A program made the position numbers and the translations under genes. Shown piece by piece: positions 4,971 to 20,042 of a stretch of DNA of 64,000 nt; positions within the stretch are counted from its first letter, which is position 1, and each line of letters starts with the position of its first letter. Source of the stretch: a virus (Duplodnaviria; Caudoviricetes); the IMG/VR virus record IMGVR_UViG_3300011577_000001; one strand, given 5' to 3'. The notes below the pieces were generated by a model. It had not been told where the DNA came from. It ran no database searches and saw only the letters and a program-made list of their open reading frames with translations.

Positions 4971-5588
4971 TTATTCCTCAGCGGAACCTTCTTGCTCTGC
5001 AACCACATTCGCCATATCGACGTTGATGGTCCACTCTTCGAAGAGCTTGCCGATGTGGGCTTTCTCTTCTTCGGTGCGTTGGGCAGGTTGGTTCACGATC
5101 ACTTCTTTCAGTGGGAACGGGAACTTTGGCAGCTCGGTCCCTTCGGACTTCACTTCCAGATCAATCTTGATCCATGGGTGACGCTCACCGCTCTGGGTGG
5201 TATACACGTCCACTTCCCATTTCAGGTCGGTACCTTCGATGTTGAAGAAGTACCGGGTCTTGTTCAGGCCTTTGTCGGCGAACATGCGGAAGAGATCGAA
5301 GTAGTCCTTGGTGCAGATCTGTTCGACTTCCCGCTTACCGAGTTCGGCGGAGAACTTGGCCTTGACGCACATGTGGTACACGTTGTCGTTGATGGCCCGT
5401 ACGCGACACTGAGCGAAGTTACCCTCACCACGATCGCGGTAAGATTCCCATTGCTCTTGTTTCTCCTGGCCGTCGGCCTGTTCCAGGAAACTCCAATCCT
5501 CTACACGAGCAAAGAACGTGTATTCGATTTCTTGTTGGACTTGCCCGTTGGCTTCATCCTCGAGCGAAATCCTCAAACGCTTCAACAT
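4971..5588 (-). CDS. CYTH (triphosphate tunnel metalloenzyme)-like protein, probably head-associated
   Basis: EIE, RVR, REVE, KTRY, WEVD and DLEV motifs in CYTH order; N-terminal ISLE is a possible prohead-protease site. Confidence 0.7.
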   Translation of the reverse strand: MLKRLRISLEDEANGQVQQEIEYTFFARVEDWSFLEQADGQEKQEQWESYRDRGEGNFAQCRVRAINDNVYHMCVKAKFSAELGKREVEQICTKDYFDLFRMFADKGLNKTRYFFNIEGTDLKWEVDVYTTQSGERHPWIKIDLEVKSEGTELPKFPFPLKEVIVNQPAQRTEEEKAHIGKLFEEWTINVDMANVVAEQEGSAEE

Positions 5589-5636
5589 TGTCCATCCCTC
5601 GCAAAAAAAAAAAGAGCTAGGGCCGAAGCCCTGTAC

Positions 5637-6050
5637 TCAGAGTGGTTTCGCCGACAGTTCCACGTGATCGTATCCGTTCGCCGCCAACAACGCCAGGATG
5701 TGCTCGTAGTCATCAGGTTTGACTTGAGAGATCTTGGCGTAGAGGGTTTCGAAGTTCATGGATACGATGGTGGATTCCCTGATCCATGGCAAGCCGAGGA
5801 TTTCGAACTCGCCAGAGGGATGTTGAATGCGCACGTACATGTACGCAGTCGGATCGTCCGGCGTACCGGCTGGGAGTGAGGGATAAACGTTGACGTGTTT
5901 CTCCTGCACGCTGAGCCCCAGAGCACGAGCCGTGGTGTCGTCGATGATGCCCAACACTTTCACGTTCTTGTAGCTCGAAGGGAGCGCAGCGGCAGGGTAG
6001 ACTGAAAACGAGACAGTGCTCTTGGGGATCAGTAAGTCCTGGGTAGCCAT
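5637..6050 (-). CDS. Conserved hypothetical protein (possible SH3-like fold)
   Basis: 137-aa ORF with RBS AAGGAG in the block upstream of the polymerase; G-L-P-W-I motif. Confidence 0.6.
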   Translation of the reverse strand: MATQDLLIPKSTVSFSVYPAAALPSSYKNVKVLGIIDDTTARALGLSVQEKHVNVYPSLPAGTPDDPTAYMYVRIQHPSGEFEILGLPWIRESTIVSMNFETLYAKISQVKPDDYEHILALLAANGYDHVELSAKPL

Positions 6051-6397
6051 GGGAAGTAGGTCTCCTTGAACTCGACGAAGATCAAGCCTCGTCCGTTCAA
6101 TACTTTAATAGAAAGAAGAGGACCTCTTACCATTGATTGCCAGAACCGTTCCCGCCTGATTCCTTCCACCAGATCCCAAAACAACTGGAATTGCTCGTGG
6201 TCGTACTCAGGGATATCGTAGTCATGCGGATCTACGATACCCAGAACAATGCTGATTAGCAGCTCAAGGTATTCAGTGCGCTCTTCATCATAAGGTGTAT
6301 CCTCATAATGATTCCCCTCCAAACAGGAAGAACGCAAAACCCCGTACTGCTTTAGAGCCTCCGCCAGGCTGTGTGACACGAAGGCAACTCGACCCAC
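6029..6397 (-). CDS. Hypothetical protein
   Basis: GTG start with RBS GAGG; tightly packed operon. Confidence 0.6.
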   Translation of the reverse strand: MGRVAFVSHSLAEALKQYGVLRSSCLEGNHYEDTPYDEERTEYLELLISIVLGIVDPHDYDIPEYDHEQFQLFWDLVEGIRRERFWQSMVRGPLLSIKVLNGRGLIFVEFKETYFPWLPRTY

Positions 6398-6405
6398 GAT
6401 GACCT

Positions 6406-6762
6406 CTACTTAGTAGCCACCACCATTACGGTCTGGCTAACGAGTGCTTGGAAACGGTAGTTTAACTTACCGGATTCATCGTACAGGCGCATCTGACGCA
6501 TGCACTTCTGCAACCCGTTAGCCAGGTTCTGGAGTGCATCCACCATGATGTCACCATCGAACCCTGAACCGCCTTCGCGGAGATTCAGTTCACGGTGCGA
6601 CTCGATGTAAGCGGTAAGTGTGTTCATGTTATTACTATCGTGCAAATGATTAATTACATCAGACACGATTGTTTTCAGATCATAGTCCACCACAGACATT
6701 CGTGCTACGGCGGCTTGGAACTGACTTAAAACATGGACACTGTTGAGAGCACAAGTAAGCAT
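6406..6762 (-). CDS. Hypothetical protein
   Basis: RBS GAGGA; operon packing. Confidence 0.65.
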   Translation of the reverse strand: MLTCALNSVHVLSQFQAAVARMSVVDYDLKTIVSDVINHLHDSNNMNTLTAYIESHRELNLREGGSGFDGDIMVDALQNLANGLQKCMRQMRLYDESGKLNYRFQALVSQTVMVVATK

Positions 6763-6797
6763 GGGAAATCCTCGTCATAAAGCGAGGGCCAATGCCC

Positions 6798-7214
6798 TCA
6801 TCGAAATGGTTCAATCAAGATGTTGTTTCCGATCCATCTGCGGATCTCGTGATAACCATAGTTGGGTAGTGGGGTATAGCAGTTAACCATACTTACTACG
6901 CGGTCATGAATTTCACTGGCCAGTGCGGTAAGCTGGTGTATCTCGATAGCCTCACTGTCCGTAAGCTCGGTTTGAGCATTAGGACGGTGTGCTATAAAGT
7001 AGTCGGACATGACAGCCAACGTCGACCACATGGTGGGTCGTTTATCAAACGATTGGTTGAGGTCCGACAGGGAGAACGATAACTCGACTAAGCCCTTCAC
7101 GCTGAGCTGGTGCTCAGCGAGATAGCTTTCGAGGTGATCGTACTCTTTGACAATTCGTTCGACGGGAACGAGGATATGTTCATTTTGCACGATAACCAAT
7201 CCTTCCATATCCAC
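6798..7214 (-). CDS. Hypothetical protein
   Basis: RBS GAGGAG; operon packing. Confidence 0.65.
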   Translation of the reverse strand: MDMEGLVIVQNEHILVPVERIVKEYDHLESYLAEHQLSVKGLVELSFSLSDLNQSFDKRPTMWSTLAVMSDYFIAHRPNAQTELTDSEAIEIHQLTALASEIHDRVVSMVNCYTPLPNYGYHEIRRWIGNNILIEPFR

Positions 7215-7234
7215 TCTCCTCAGAGTGTGTCAGG

Positions 7235-7666
7235 TTAGTAGATGTCTATTAAGTACCCGCGATCAGTGTGCTTGAGGTCAAACGACCAATCACGGTTCCG
7301 CATCAACTTGCCAACGTACTGTCTGGCAATGCGACGAGTTAGCCCATACACGTACTCGTAATGCCGAAGCATCCGGTGATCATTGTGAAAGGCATAATAC
7401 TCGTCGTTGCACATGTTGTCGACCAACACCTCATCCATCGCCATGACCAGACTTTCGTCGTACGCCATTGGATCGTGGGTCAACTCACCATGTAGCACAT
7501 TCAGAATGAAATCTGCCCGACCCATGCCGAGCATGTTCAGAATGCGCTGCTCCATCACTGGAAAATGCGAATCGGGGATATAGATGTACACGATATCTTT
7601 CTCAGATGTCGGTGAGGTATCCAGTAATCCCAAGCTGTCGACGAAGTTCCTCAGGATACCAGTCAC
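7235..7666 (-). CDS. Hypothetical protein (start uncertain)
   Basis: ORF overlapping the upstream gene; RBS AAGGAG near the GTG. Confidence 0.55.
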   Translation of the reverse strand: MTGILRNFVDSLGLLDTSPTSEKDIVYIYIPDSHFPVMEQRILNMLGMGRADFILNVLHGELTHDPMAYDESLVMAMDEVLVDNMCNDEYYAFHNDHRMLRHYEYVYGLTRRIARQYVGKLMRNRDWSFDLKHTDRGYLIDIY

Positions 7667-8108
7667 CTTTGTCCACTCCTTCTTGTATCTGTCGACGCAA
7701 TACGTCAGTCGGGTTCTCAGGGCGACTGCGTGCTAGTTGATGGATCACCACGTCTCCGCGTGGGGTCAAATCAAAGTCCCAACTCCAGTCTTCTACTTCC
7801 ACTTGTACCAATGACCACACATACTTCTTAATGGAGTCAATGGCTTCTTCGAGCATATCCTCGACTTGGTCAACAGGAATCCGATCGCTATATGACTGAA
7901 TGTAGTTGACCAAGCTTTGGTAGTTCGACATTACGTTTCCATAGAAAACGTTTTCCACTAACCCGAAGTAGAAACCACTCAGGTCAATGAACTTGGCTTG
8001 GGCGCCCAAGTATTCAGCTAGGCGCCCCTCCAATTGTCTAATGACAGGAGCCCCAGGGATGACAGTTGACGCCACGAGAGTTACTCCAATCCCAAATCCG
8101 GTAGTCAC
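7602..8108 (-). CDS. Hypothetical protein (start uncertain)
   Basis: ORF within a co-oriented operon. Confidence 0.55.
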   Translation of the reverse strand: MTTGFGIGVTLVASTVIPGAPVIRQLEGRLAEYLGAQAKFIDLSGFYFGLVENVFYGNVMSNYQSLVNYIQSYSDRIPVDQVEDMLEEAIDSIKKYVWSLVQVEVEDWSWDFDLTPRGDVVIHQLARSRPENPTDVLRRQIQEGVDKGDWYPEELRRQLGITGYLTDI

Positions 8109-8556
8109 CTTTACGCTCCAGAATCAAGTTATAACCGAACTCCTTGATTTCGAACACATCCCAGCTCGGTTGATCGCCGAAGTACTTACCGAAGATCTGA
8201 TTGATCAGACATTCGATTGGGTCACCAACGGCATCTACAAACATAGCTTTAAATTGCGGATGTAGATATTCATCGTTTGGACACAAGCGAGCCATTGCTC
8301 CCGCCCGGTGGCCACGTTCGATGAACTCTTTCGGGAACGGGCCAAAAGCACGGGTGAGTTTCTTCTCCCGTGTTTCAATCTCCCACCAAGGTAGCCAACT
8401 ACGCAGTTGTTGGAGCACCATCGCTTTGGCCAAGAGTATGCACTTTGGCCGTGTTGCTGCCGGGATCAAGTGGTGCGCACCGATCTCCAAGTAGAAGTTA
8501 TCAAGCCTGTACTTCAGTTGCAGCGCAATGGTTTCTACTGGATACAAGAAGTTCAT
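8038..8556 (-). CDS. Hypothetical protein
   Basis: RBS GAGG; operon packing. Confidence 0.6.
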   Translation of the reverse strand: MNFLYPVETIALQLKYRLDNFYLEIGAHHLIPAATRPKCILLAKAMVLQQLRSWLPWWEIETREKKLTRAFGPFPKEFIERGHRAGAMARLCPNDEYLHPQFKAMFVDAVGDPIECLINQIFGKYFGDQPSWDVFEIKEFGYNLILERKGDYRIWDWSNSRGVNCHPWGSCH

Positions 8557-8563
8557 GCCAACC

Positions 8564-8914
8564 TCATTTACTGAACAAGTACAACCCAGTTGTGAGGATC
8601 TCCAAACGAAGTTCTCCTTCCGGGATGTGATGGTAACCGCATGAGGTTATCAATTTGAACAAACGCTCTCGAAGTAGGTTAGACGAATCCATGTCGTGGA
8701 TAGTTCTCAGAACAGGAACCGAAGTCTCCTGTTTAATGCTGAGTAGTGTACAGGATTCGATTACATCGATAACCCATGCACGTTCTATCACACCGACTGT
8801 AGTCATGAAATCGCATCCAGGAAACAGATCGCGATTCTTCGAGAGAGCCTGCACAACCTCACCATGTATCAACGGTTGTATGTTGCGATAATCCGCAACC
8901 AATTGAAGGCCCAT
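8564..8914 (-). CDS. Hypothetical protein, first gene of an early operon
   Basis: RBS AAGGT; early-promoter variant TATATTATCC at ~8941-8965. Confidence 0.65.
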   Translation of the reverse strand: MGLQLVADYRNIQPLIHGEVVQALSKNRDLFPGCDFMTTVGVIERAWVIDVIESCTLLSIKQETSVPVLRTIHDMDSSNLLRERLFKLITSCGYHHIPEGELRLEILTTGLYLFSK

Positions 8915-11154: not shown

Positions 11155-11230
11155 TGGTAGCACCAAGTGGGCTCGAACCACCGACCTCACCCTTATCAGG
11201 GGTGCGCTCTACCAACTGAGCTATAGCGCT
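11155..11230 (-). tRNA. tRNA-Ile(GAT)
   Basis: CACCC-CT-GAT-AA-GGGTG, canonical cloverleaf, CCA. Confidence 0.95.
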
Positions 11231-11237
11231 ATGAAAC

Positions 11238-11609
11238 TTAACCGCGACGGTTATAGTTGACGCGCTGGACTTCCAGCTCGACATACAATTCCATCGGGTA
11301 TTGAGAAGGCAGTTCTACCGAGACACGCGCGATGGCAGTCTCAGGGTTGACGAATACCGCAAACGGAGCATTGGCGAAGGAGCCCAACACGCCTTGCATC
11401 TGGACACCACGCTCGGTTTCGCTCTTGATCGGGCTGGTGATGTTGCAGGCAATGTCCACACCGTCAACGGTGGTGACACGCACTGCTTTCACCGACTCGA
11501 TGGAGTCAGTACTGTCGAACTCTTCGGTCTGTGTAGCAATCAGACCAAACAGGTTGACTTGGCTAACCTTGAGCGGCAAACGAACGTGGTCAACAGGATA
11601 CTTGTACAT
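11238..11609 (-). CDS. Hypothetical protein; stand-alone paralog of the C-terminal domain of the upstream Tad2 fusion
   Basis: Shares VRxPL-x4-5-NLFxL...DxIxSVxxVxxxTxDG...N and EL(F/Y)xxLx(I/V)...NRR with the C-terminal half of 11619-12254. Confidence 0.75.
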   Translation of the reverse strand: MYKYPVDHVRLPLKVSQVNLFGLIATQTEEFDSTDSIESVKAVRVTTVDGVDIACNITSPIKSETERGVQMQGVLGSFANAPFAVFVNPETAIARVSVELPSQYPMELYVELEVQRVNYNRRG

Positions 11610-11618
11610 GACAGCCCC

Positions 11619-12254
11619 TTATTCAGAACGACGGTTGCGTTGGCCGTACTCGATGCGAAGAACCGCGAACAGCTCAACCGAATTCTCGGCAGCAGATGAA
11701 CGCGTTGGCATGCAACCCCATTTCTGGGTGTCAACTTGGATGTTGACGTGTTGCTTACCGTTGAGGCGATCCGCAAAGGTCTTCAAGCGAGTCTCAGTAC
11801 GGTGTCCCGGTACTTCGACGACGTTGCTCTTGACGACCAACCCATCAGCAGTCTCCAGGTGAACGACTTCCACCGAGAAGATAGCATCAGGACCCTCCAA
11901 CACGGCGCCGGTTTCACCAGCCAACGTGAAGAGGTTTTGTTCAACGCCGTTCAAAGGAACGCGCACGTCAACCTTGGCAACGTAATCCTCAGCATCAAGG
12001 ACTACCCAGTCGTCGGCAAGGATGTCGGACTGAGAAGCAACCCACGGGACAAAATCACCGTTGTGCGCTTTCAGACCCAGCCAAGGTCGCAGAGTCGGTG
12101 CAGGGTCCTTACGAACGTTGAGACCAACGGTGCGAGCACCCACGTCATAATGGCCAGAGCCAACCATGACGACCCACATGCCTTTACCGTTCCAGCCTTC
12201 GCGTGTGGCGCGAGAGCCATGCTTCAAAGCCGTAAGGGCTTGACCGAACTCCAT
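11619..12254 (-). CDS. tad2: DUF2829/Tad2-family anti-defence sponge domain fused to an unknown C-terminal domain
   Basis: MEFGQALTALKHGSRATREGWNGKGMW...WVASQSDILADDW is the DUF2829/Tad2 signature. Start at 12254 (RBS CAGGAG); the longer ORF call runs into tRNA-Ser. Confidence 0.8.
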   Translation of the reverse strand: MEFGQALTALKHGSRATREGWNGKGMWVVMVGSGHYDVGARTVGLNVRKDPAPTLRPWLGLKAHNGDFVPWVASQSDILADDWVVLDAEDYVAKVDVRVPLNGVEQNLFTLAGETGAVLEGPDAIFSVEVVHLETADGLVVKSNVVEVPGHRTETRLKTFADRLNGKQHVNIQVDTQKWGCMPTRSSAAENSVELFAVLRIEYGQRNRRSE

Positions 12255-12275: not shown

Positions 12276-12361
12276 TGGCGGTGGGCGAAGGATTCGAACC
12301 TTCGGGGCCGCAACCCTCTCCCTTAGCAAGGGAGTGCGATAGACCGCTCTGCCAGCCCACC
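12276..12361 (-). tRNA. tRNA-Ser(GCT)
   Basis: CTCCC-TT-GCT-AA-GGGAG, variable arm, G73-CCA. Confidence 0.92.
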
Positions 12362-12384: not shown

Positions 12385-12461
12385 TGGCTGGGATAGTTGG
12401 GCTCGAACCAACGACCTGGTGATTAACAGTCACCCGCTACTACCAACTGAGCTATATCCCA
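12385..12461 (-). tRNA. tRNA-Asn(GTT)
   Basis: GGTGA-CT-GTT-AA-TCACC, U1-A72, G73-CCA. Confidence 0.93.
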
Positions 12462-12964
12462 TTATAACGAATACCAAGAGCTACCCGACGAACCGTGTCT
12501 TTACCGATTTCAAACTCCCGAGCAATTGCTCGATAGCTCATGGTACCGACCAGTTCAAGGATAGCCTTGACTGACTCTTCATCAAGCGCAGCATGTGGGC
12601 TGTCAAACCCTTTCTTGCCTTCATACAAACCTAAGGCTTGCGCATGATCAATATTACCTTGATGCGTTACCCACTCCAAGTTATCCCACCGGTTATTTGT
12701 CTTATCCGTGTCCTTATGGTTCACGAAGGGAAGATTCAACGGGTTAGGGACAAAAGCCTTGGCCACTTGTACATGAGCCCTTAAACAGAACGACTTACCT
12801 TTCCTTCCTCCTATCTTGGAGGCGTGAGTAAGATAGCCATTATGGTTGGGCGTCAGTGCCAAATCTTGGAACGTGCGAATGCTAAACAGTGTCCCGAAAT
12901 TGCCGATCATGAAGAGATCAGGGTAGTCAGGACATTCCGTGAAGACTTCAAATTCATACGACAT
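12452..12964 (-). CDS. Free-standing HNH homing endonuclease with C-terminal HTH
   Basis: H...VAKAFVPNP...VNHKDTDKTNNRWDNLEWVTHQGNIDHA; HTH-like SYRAIAREFEIGKDTVRR; early promoter at ~12990-13012. Confidence 0.9.
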   Translation of the reverse strand: MSYEFEVFTECPDYPDLFMIGNFGTLFSIRTFQDLALTPNHNGYLTHASKIGGRKGKSFCLRAHVQVAKAFVPNPLNLPFVNHKDTDKTNNRWDNLEWVTHQGNIDHAQALGLYEGKKGFDSPHAALDEESVKAILELVGTMSYRAIAREFEIGKDTVRRVALGIRYNGI

Positions 12965-18845: not shown

Positions 18846-20042
18846 TTACAATATTATTGGCTCTACAATCCATCGAGCCATATACGGAATTTTGGGATAC
18901 TTGTCGATCCAGCTTCTTAGTGCTGAGCGCGCCCAACCAAAGAAGCTAGCTACATCTTTCAAAGACGGATAGTAGTCTACCTGTCCGGTGTACGTATCCA
19001 AAACCTTGTAAGGTACAGCTCCCCTGGATTTGCGAATCAAGGAAGCTTGTTTCTGATCCTCGTCGTAAACGGGAAATGGGGTATCGTTATCGGGTCTCTT
19101 GAAGGAATAACCTTTGAAAGGCAAGACGCTCCCGCCATTGATAAAAGTTCTTATTGTGTTTTCACAAACACCGGTAACCCTAACGGCTTCTTGGCCTGAG
19201 GCGAAGGTATACTCAATTCCAGTAGGGTGATGTTTGGCGAGGATACAATCCACATATGCTTTCCTGCTGAAATACTTAACTCTAGAATCTAAAGCTTGAT
19301 CAACCGTGTATGCAGGGACTTCTCGCAAATCTTTGAACCACTTAAAGGTGTAGCCCGCAACCATACTTAAATCGCATTTCTTCAAAGCGTTAAGAATGGT
19401 ATTTCTAAGGACCCCTGTGAGTATCGACATGGTGCTAACATTCTCCGACACTAAACGAGTTCCCAATACGTGATCAATGGCTACTATTTTGTCCTCAGTC
19501 TTGTGAGCTGGTCTATGTTCCGACAAGTTATGGCTAAGGATAAATTTATCTTTGTACTTCGGCTTATCTGGATGTCCTAGTAGTCTCTTGATTGCTTCTG
19601 GGGTCGACCCTAGGGCGCGAGCGGCAGCCTCCATTGAATGGAAGCTAACGACCTGTCCGGTCTCAGTATCACAGGCCGTAATTTGCAGATTGTAATTAGT
19701 CAATCCGTTTTCTAAGGCGTGCTGTACATTACCTGAACCAGTTTCCCATTCCAGATTACCAGACGCGTTGTGATACTTAACTCCGTCTTTATGGTTAACT
19801 TGGTAAAGCTTTCCATCTGACGGAGGAGGTCCGTTAAAAGCTTTACACACCAGCACATGTACCAAGCGTTTAGTGTGTCCTTCTTTTGCGGACCAAAGGT
19901 TTACTCTACGGTAGCCATCTTCCTTTACAAAATGTTGAGATACGTCACGATAGTAACCTTTTGATTTCCAAACTCTTACATTTCCCTGGTCACTGATTTC
20001 ATAGCCGGGGAAATCTTCAATGACTTTCCACTCTTCGGACAT
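18846..20042 (-). CDS. Free-standing NUMOD4-HNH endonuclease with repeated NUMOD1-like DNA-binding modules
   Basis: EEWKVIEDFPGYEISDQGNVR; VHVLVCKAF; VNHKDGVKYHNASGNLEW; AT-richer than flanking genes; early-promoter variant at ~20067-20092. Confidence 0.9.
   Translation of the reverse strand: MSEEWKVIEDFPGYEISDQGNVRVWKSKGYYRDVSQHFVKEDGYRRVNLWSAKEGHTKRLVHVLVCKAFNGPPPSDGKLYQVNHKDGVKYHNASGNLEWETGSGNVQHALENGLTNYNLQITACDTETGQVVSFHSMEAAARALGSTPEAIKRLLGHPDKPKYKDKFILSHNLSEHRPAHKTEDKIVAIDHVLGTRLVSENVSTMSILTGVLRNTILNALKKCDLSMVAGYTFKWFKDLREVPAYTVDQALDSRVKYFSRKAYVDCILAKHHPTGIEYTFASGQEAVRVTGVCENTIRTFINGGSVLPFKGYSFKRPDNDTPFPVYDEDQKQASLIRKSRGAVPYKVLDTYTGQVDYYPSLKDVASFFGWARSALRSWIDKYPKIPYMARWIVEPIIL

Follow-up and report, generated by a model that had tools for sequence, protein, structure and literature searches.

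Nucleus-forming jumbo phages are shielded from defences that target DNA but not from those that signal through small molecules, and how they withstand the latter is poorly understood. The locus described here, where a Tad2 signal sponge is maintained in the tRNA operon throughout a clade of such phages, raises the question in a concrete form: what is the domain to which this sponge is fused, why does the next gene encode a second copy of it, and could that domain be a counter-defence module as well? The locus lies in a stretch of 64,000 nucleotides from a giant tailed phage of soil (IMG/VR record IMGVR_UViG_3300011577_000001; hereafter the window), where positions 11238-12254 hold two adjacent, tightly packed minus-strand genes with exactly the coordinates given in an earlier note made from the sequence alone. 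Gene A runs from an ATG at 12254 to a TAA at 11619-11621 and encodes 211 amino acids, and gene B runs from an ATG at 11609 to a TAA at 11238-11240 and encodes 123. Tad2 and Tad2 fusions as such are already known; what is new is an undescribed family of partner domains with a narrow distribution, two ancient types (an A-type and a B-type, named after the two genes), a cassette-like A-type and a conserved position in a tRNA operon.

A Tad2 domain, its partner domain and the free paralogue

The N-terminal part of gene A (residues 1-86; 11997-12254, minus strand) was identified as a Tad2-like sponge domain from Pfam and from sequence matches in the PDB. Residues 1-85 match the Tad2-like family PF11195 (DUF2829) with an expect value (E) of 1.9e-23 over profile positions 1-72 of 73 and a score of 83.2 bits against a gathering cut-off of 25, bearing out the signature that had been read in the first ~85 residues. 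This part also matches three PHROG families of unknown function. Its nearest solved relatives are MoTad2/ModTad2 (8v3e/9eib; E 6e-16, ~42% identity), and SptTad2, HgmTad2, AcrIIA7 and SPO1 Tad2 were matched as well. When aligned with HMMER, residues W21, N22, G23, W71, S74, S76 and D77 correspond to W21, N22, G23, W87, S90, T92 and D93 of HgmTad2, the sole change among these pocket residues being T to S at one position (S76). The W21A/N22A and S90A/T92A/D93A mutants of HgmTad2 lose gcADPR binding (10.1101/2023.11.15.567273), and W25, N26, W73, S76, T78 and D79 of SPO1 Tad2 contact the ligand (10.1101/2023.05.01.538930). From family membership and the conserved pocket residues we infer a signal sponge, which very probably sequesters a TIR-derived ADP-ribose-type signal as a tetramer, as its relatives do. 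The insertion after beta2 spans only 25 residues (32-56), with residues 1-31 and 57-86 of gene A aligning to 1-31 and 72-102 of HgmTad2. As the cyclic-dinucleotide pocket of the HgmTad2 type is built by an insertion of 35-41 residues between beta2 and beta5 (10.1101/2023.11.15.567273), such a pocket is not expected in gene A.

The remainder of gene A (residues 88-211; 11622-11993, minus strand) resembles gene B (11238-11609, minus strand), which consists of the same domain standing alone. BLASTP aligns the two with 34% identity over 65 residues (E 6e-7). Profile alignment with hhalign of six fused C-terminal domains against six stand-alone copies gave a probability of 93.5% and E 2.2e-7 over 110 columns; with two more distant members added to each side, the eight-sequence profiles reached 97.6% and E 3.5e-12, with 114 columns spanning the entire domain. 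The earlier note had described an unknown C-terminal domain with a free paralogue next door; the relationship is significant by the test fixed beforehand for profile alignment, and all three motif pairs that had been matched by eye are in register in the hhalign alignment. Judged by these alignments, the C-terminal ~125 residues of gene A are a true paralogue of gene B.

Sequence and profile searches of Pfam, PHROGs, PADLOC and the PDB placed neither the C-terminal domain of gene A nor gene B in any family, and a Pfam scan at E up to 1 returned PF11195 alone for gene A and nothing for gene B. Neither domain was recognised by the hidden Markov models (HMMs) of the two sponge families Acb4 (PF13876) and Sequestin (PF21825), and BLASTP of both against an Acb4-Sequestin protein, gp06 of Alcaligenes phage QDWS595, gave E values of 0.15-0.31. 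The same phage had come up in a tblastn search as a possible split homologue covering 78% of gene A, but we rejected it, as the alignment reads through a stop codon into the Acb4-Sequestin gene, which is unrelated to the C-terminal domain. A tblastn search with gene B against 50,697 phage records found nothing at E up to 1.

Relatives appeared only in far larger collections. When the C-terminal domain was searched by word index against 5.8 billion proteins, five were recovered, all of them Tad2 fusions of 210-212 amino acids on contigs of at most 244 kilobases (kb). A joint profile, run exhaustively with hmmsearch against 1.84 billion representatives, gave only six credible matches, namely the two known forms and four more distant Tad2 fusions. 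Two long proteins from this representative search (P0019 and P0020) were set aside as spurious; neither has a Tad2 domain, one lacks any matched stretch, and in the other, a long protein made up of multiple stretches, only 35 residues match. After a second profile round against the 5.8 billion proteins there were 12 clusters in all, each a Tad2 fusion or a free copy. We fetched five closely related contigs, and in all five the fusion gene is followed, after 9 nucleotides, by a free copy of 122-125 amino acids; indeed, every free copy with a fetched contig sits directly downstream of a Tad2 fusion. Every locus examined lies in the tRNA cluster of a jumbo-phage contig, with a PhuZ-type tubulin gene a few kb away. 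The orphan domain is restricted to a phiKZ-like clade of jumbo phages and is linked to Tad2 only.

Domain types and the variable segment of gene A

An alignment of all 16 copies of the domain splits cleanly into the two types. The A-type is fused to Tad2 in the window clade and in two of the more distant fusions (P0015 and P0017), and its members share 20-26% identity with any B-type copy. The B-type stands free in the window clade and is fused to Tad2 in two others (P0016 and P0018), with 42-48% identity between fused and free copies; gene B of the window is 45-48% identical to the fused domains of P0016 and P0018. The distant phages have one fusion gene and no free copy within the contig stretches fetched. 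The Tad2 domains of P0015, which carries an A-type domain, and of P0016 and P0018, which carry B-type domains, are 67-71% identical to one another and 47-58% identical to those of the window clade, so the type of the partner domain does not follow the Tad2 tree. Because the B-type is fused in more distant relatives and the A-type in the window clade, the duplication predates the clade. The simplest history would be a duplication older than all these phages, after which some lineages lost one copy; where the homologous A and B segments recombine, A could be deleted and Tad2 thereby joined to B. Each type is evidently able to serve alone with Tad2. With A-type and B-type copies taken together, eleven positions hold the same residue in 15 or all 16 copies (P100, L101, L108, D123, I125, V128, T135, D137, L195, R208 and R209), with D123, V128, R208 and R209 identical in all 16, and the C-terminal R-R pair stands out among them. 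Both types are net acidic, with charges of -1 to -7.

In the six close relatives, identity is 92-100% in the Tad2 domain and 83-98% in gene B, but only 52-97% in the A-type domain between them. Pairwise Nei-Gojobori estimates of omega, the ratio of nonsynonymous (dN) to synonymous divergence (dS), were 0.02-0.09 for Tad2, 0.12-0.26 for the A segment and 0.07-0.20 for gene B, and all three segments are under purifying selection. For most pairs dS reached 0.9-3 in the A segment, compared with 0.1-0.8 in both flanks. Sliding nucleotide identity between the window and three relatives (L009, L002 and L010) was 85-100% in Tad2, dropped with sharp edges to 43-73% in the A-type domain, rose to 92-95% at the conserved last strand and the spacer, and stayed at 73-95% through gene B. 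Taken with the omega values, which indicate purifying selection, the high dS and the sharp edges show that phages swap the A-type domain among themselves in the form of divergent alleles that remain functional. Flanked by a Tad2 domain that hardly varies and by the conserved gene B, the A segment is a hypervariable, recombining cassette with sharp boundaries. Its divergent alleles fall into groups (the window with L008 and L005; L009 with P0024; L002 with L010). The alleles of the two genes also reassort independently, as the window shares 97% identity in A and 85% in B with one relative (L008) and 61% in A and 96% in B with another (L009).

Predicted fold and proposed role of the orphan domain

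AlphaFold2 modelling of gene B on six free copies gave a mean predicted local distance difference test score (pLDDT) of 78.7 and a predicted template modelling (TM) score of 0.68. The C-terminal domain in the model of gene A (pLDDT 60-83) has the same order of elements as gene B, namely a strand, a helix and six or seven strands; the Tad2 part of this fusion model is poor (pLDDT 23-39), the alignment being shallow with six near-identical rows. ESMFold2, as used in the complex prediction below, gave a pLDDT of 84-86 for both the A and the B domain. Taken together, the models give a beta-sandwich. Foldseek found no match in the PDB at E up to 0.001, while in BFVD the top matches, with TM-scores of 0.5-0.6, were almost all small uncharacterised proteins of phiKZ-like phages: a Psa21 protein (E 9.5e-5), PhiPA3 gp366 (E 7.9e-4) and a Psa21 "virion structural protein" (E 2.5e-3), followed by proteins of Phabio, PhiEaH1 and pEt-SU. 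A shape search of the ESM Atlas reached a TM-score of 0.67 to a 94-member cluster of 212-residue Tad2-like proteins, which is the fusion family itself, and a feature search of the same resource returned unnamed viral clusters for gene B and no usable match for the A-type domain. The closest structural likenesses lie in small orphan beta-sandwich proteins from chimalliviruses, among them Psa21 A0A481W6H9 and PhiPA3 gp366, and in a segment of a jumbo-phage major capsid protein (PDB 7X30, residues 150-281). With hhalign giving E 0.034 and a probability of 1.5%, we do not count gp366 as a homologue by sequence and treat it, an orphan without relatives from which to build a profile, as a structural lead only. 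Gene 366 of PhiPA3 encodes a 115-residue orphan within a run of small genes beside tRNA-Val and tRNA-Asn (L020, 14235-15589), and its product ends in N-N-N-R-G-R, a similar basic tail. Its setting may hint at a feature shared more widely by chimalliviruses, namely small beta-sandwich genes in tRNA regions.

Whether the two copies touch each other was addressed by complex prediction, in which the A-type profile scored 0.55 against the B-type profile, compared with 0.00 for the best of three controls. The pass mark of this prediction was reached by 58 of 80 solved complexes and by 2 of 110 mismatched pairs, and as scores of up to 0.60 included only 7 of the 80 solved complexes along with both passing mismatches, 0.55 is a weak pass. 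Three runs agreed in at least 89% of contacts, with a partner pLDDT of at least 85. Paralogues can, however, score in this way through the interface of an ancestral homodimer. The suggestion of a hetero-oligomeric partner in the earlier note has weak support from the complex score, and the independent reassortment of A and B alleles argues against tight, allele-specific pairing. Since, in addition, some relatives have a single type, the A-B pair is not obligatory; pairing may occur but is not required.

With moderate confidence, we favour the reading, largely by analogy, that genes A and B form a two-gene anti-defence unit consisting of a Tad2 signal sponge and an accessory anti-defence module of a new kind. 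The two genes, transcribed together with the tRNA operon of this phiKZ-like jumbo phage, would supply a two-part unit in which the Tad2 domain, most likely as a homotetramer, soaks up the ADP-ribose-type alarm molecules made by the TIR proteins of Thoeris-like defences; its ligand could be gcADPR or 3'cADPR, or else one of those bound by MoTad2, His-ADPR and cUMP. The beta-sandwich would most likely lie outside the tetramer, pair with itself or with its paralogue and bind a second target, either another immune signal or a host defence protein, and the A-type copy would be swapped between phages as a variable cassette. An accessory module with a second target is favoured by the precedents of Tad2 fused to Acb4 and Sequestin, including the gene layout in phage QDWS595. 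The invariant D, T, D and R-R residues, along with the fusion precedent, would favour a nucleotide as this target, while the hypervariable recombining cassette, the acidic surface and a size atypical of sponges would favour a host protein. The more specific proposal, that the orphan beta-sandwich founds a new counter-defence family (taking up a second immune signal as a sponge, or binding a host defence protein) in which the A-type is a swappable specificity cassette that lends a variable second activity to a locus with a constant Tad2, is a tentative one.

The candidate anti-defence module of the earlier note gains support from the exclusive linkage to Tad2 and from the published precedent of Tad2-fused partners being sponges (10.1101/2025.07.12.664507). 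Several observations weigh against the favoured reading. The gene B models produced by AlphaFold2 are confident in only two of five cases, the alleles of A and B reassort independently, and distant relatives keep one type only. Furthermore, at ~120 residues and with its acidic charge, the beta-sandwich differs from published sponges, which are mostly shorter than 100 residues and form homo-oligomers with positively charged interface pockets (10.1101/2025.07.12.664507).

The beta-sandwich might instead be purely architectural, an arm for oligomerisation, solubility or scaffolding that links Tad2 tetramers through A-A or A-B contacts and has no target of its own. Neighbouring paralogues are often heterodimers derived from an ancestral homodimer, the fold is a generic one, the orphan domain never occurs without Tad2, and the weak complex-prediction support for an A-B contact would fit as well. 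We nevertheless consider such an arm unlikely, as a scaffold is not expected to take the form of a sharply bounded hypervariable cassette of divergent alleles, and the polar residues D123, T135, D137, R208 and R209, conserved across both types, suggest a site with a role beyond packing. Stand-alone Tad2 proteins of ~90 residues also function without any such arm (10.1101/2023.05.01.538930). It is less probable still that the domain belongs to a chimallivirus-wide family of small proteins concerned with localisation, such as loading into the virion or the early infection vesicle or retention in the cytoplasm, rather than with binding immune molecules. This idea draws on the BFVD matches, nearly all to small proteins of phiKZ-like phages and one of them the Psa21 protein annotated as structural, and on PhiPA3 gene 366, which adjoins tRNA genes and encodes a similar N-N-R-G-R tail; yet the sequence link to gp366 is not significant, no profile can be built from that orphan, and a stoichiometric sponge present in a few virion copies would presumably be of little use.

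There is very little chance, finally, that gene B is a decaying remnant, left by a tandem duplication or by the splitting of a three-domain gene, with the A-type drifting and only Tad2 of importance. The ATG of gene B shares the frame of gene A and follows it after one TAA and three codons, some relatives have lost one of the two copies, and the A segment is far more divergent than its flanks, all of which decay would explain. However, an intact gene B with a ribosome-binding site of its own retains 83-98% identity among seven phages at an omega of 0.07-0.20, and the split between A and B is older than the clade. The A cassette likewise combines high dS with an omega of 0.12-0.26 and no excess of dN, so its divergence points to the exchange of functional alleles and not to decay, a reading that is largely refuted by dN/dS. 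The exclusive Tad2 linkage, the two ancient types and the recombining variable A-type make the orphan domain a concrete and cheaply testable candidate for a new anti-defence activity.

Genomic setting and known systems

The gene pair lies inside a cluster of eight same-strand tRNAs predicted by ARAGORN. Directly upstream of gene A, in the same operon, is tRNA-Ser(GCT) (12276-12361, minus strand), and tRNA-Ile(GAT) (11155-11230, minus strand) begins 7 nucleotides past the stop codon of gene B. A GGAG motif stands 6 nucleotides ahead of the gene A ATG; a longer reading frame starting at a TTG was rejected because it would overlap tRNA-Ser and because the Pfam alignment and the genes called in all relatives fit the ATG. 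The gene A stop codon (11619-11621) is followed by the 9-nucleotide spacer (11610-11618), which holds part of the Shine-Dalgarno-like AAGGGG of gene B; this motif starts inside the stop codon and so overlaps the end of gene A. The in-frame junction with its 9-nucleotide spacer recurs in every close relative (L002, L005, L008, L009 and L010), and reading through the TAA of gene A would yield a three-domain Tad2-A-B protein. We rejected such read-through as a means of fusing A and B, as no suppressor tRNA was found among the phage tRNAs and gene B has its own start and ribosome-binding site. An HMM search of all six-frame open reading frames of the window found no third copy of the domain.

The window also carries a PhuZ-type tubulin, a vertex protein like phiKZ gp28 and a divergent family B polymerase, which is consistent with the nucleus-forming phage that the earlier note had supposed. 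Megablast of the locus against phage records returned matches to tRNA-Ile only, so this phage is absent from that collection. Two genes resembling HNH/NUMOD homing endonucleases are present (12452-12964 and 18846-20042, both minus strand), one of which separates tRNA-Asn from tRNA-Asp within the tRNA cluster. A run of nine small same-strand genes (4971-8914, minus strand) encoding 116-205 amino acids lies downstream of the island and is syntenic in all relatives; seven of the nine have no PHROG family, two match families of unknown function, and none matches the profile of the A/B domain. Several relatives have a conserved gene of 60 codons after the Tad2 locus, often followed by one of 76 codons (L002 7027-7456, L005 7030-7459, L012 962-1144 and L017 5879-6061). 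The relatives concerned include some with a fused B-type domain, and both genes are missing in the window and in L008, in which gene B is directly followed by tRNA-Ile. The fusion P0018 (L017, 5001-5870) has a further 77-residue N-terminal extension of unknown family ahead of Tad2, giving the order extension, Tad2 and B-type domain.

Among known systems, the Tad2 domain of gene A is most like MoTad2/ModTad2 from a Myroides odoratus prophage (8V3E, 9EIB), with which it is colinear over its whole length and shares a similarly short insertion between beta2 and beta3. As a homotetramer, MoTad2 has one pocket that takes His-ADPR and another, at a different interface, that takes cUMP (10.1101/2025.08.24.671296). 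It differs in being a stand-alone protein of 89 residues, whereas the window protein has an extra C-terminal domain of 125. SPO1 Tad2 (gp34.65; 8SME-8SMG) and HgmTad2 (8KBI-8KBM) belong to the same Pfam family, and the W-N-G loop and the W-x-x-S-x-[S/T]-D motif, which hold gcADPR, are kept; neither has a C-terminal domain. The insertion of SPO1 Tad2 is similarly short to that of the window protein, while HgmTad2 has ~40 residues between beta2 and the next core strand compared with 25 here.

The organisation of the locus is best compared with the Acb4-Tad2 and Tad2-Sequestin fusions, for example those of Pasteurella phage Pm86 and QDWS595 (gp05/gp06), where Tad2 is likewise joined to a second module that recurs in a neighbouring gene. 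Fusions of Tad2 with Acb4 and with PF21825 are frequent, and it was thanks to such a fusion that PF21825 was shown to be a sponge, Sequestin (10.1101/2025.07.12.664507). In Alcaligenes phage vB_Af_QDWS595 (L001, 1940-3055), gp05 is an Acb4(PF13876)-Tad2 protein and is followed by gp06, an Acb4-Sequestin(PF21825) protein; gp06 is in the frame of gp05, one stop and two codons downstream, and this array of three sponge families lies just before the terminase genes. The partner domain in the window matches neither PF13876 nor PF21825 and, as modelled, is a beta-sandwich of ~120 residues, where those fusions have a short helical or a small alpha/beta module. It is also C-terminal and confined to one clade of jumbo phages, and, unlike Sequestin, which mostly stands alone, it is never seen apart from Tad2. 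If the domain were a scaffold only, the locus would be an ordinary new Tad2 fusion architecture; the reasoning from the Tad2 fusion to a candidate new anti-defence activity is the same that led to Sequestin.

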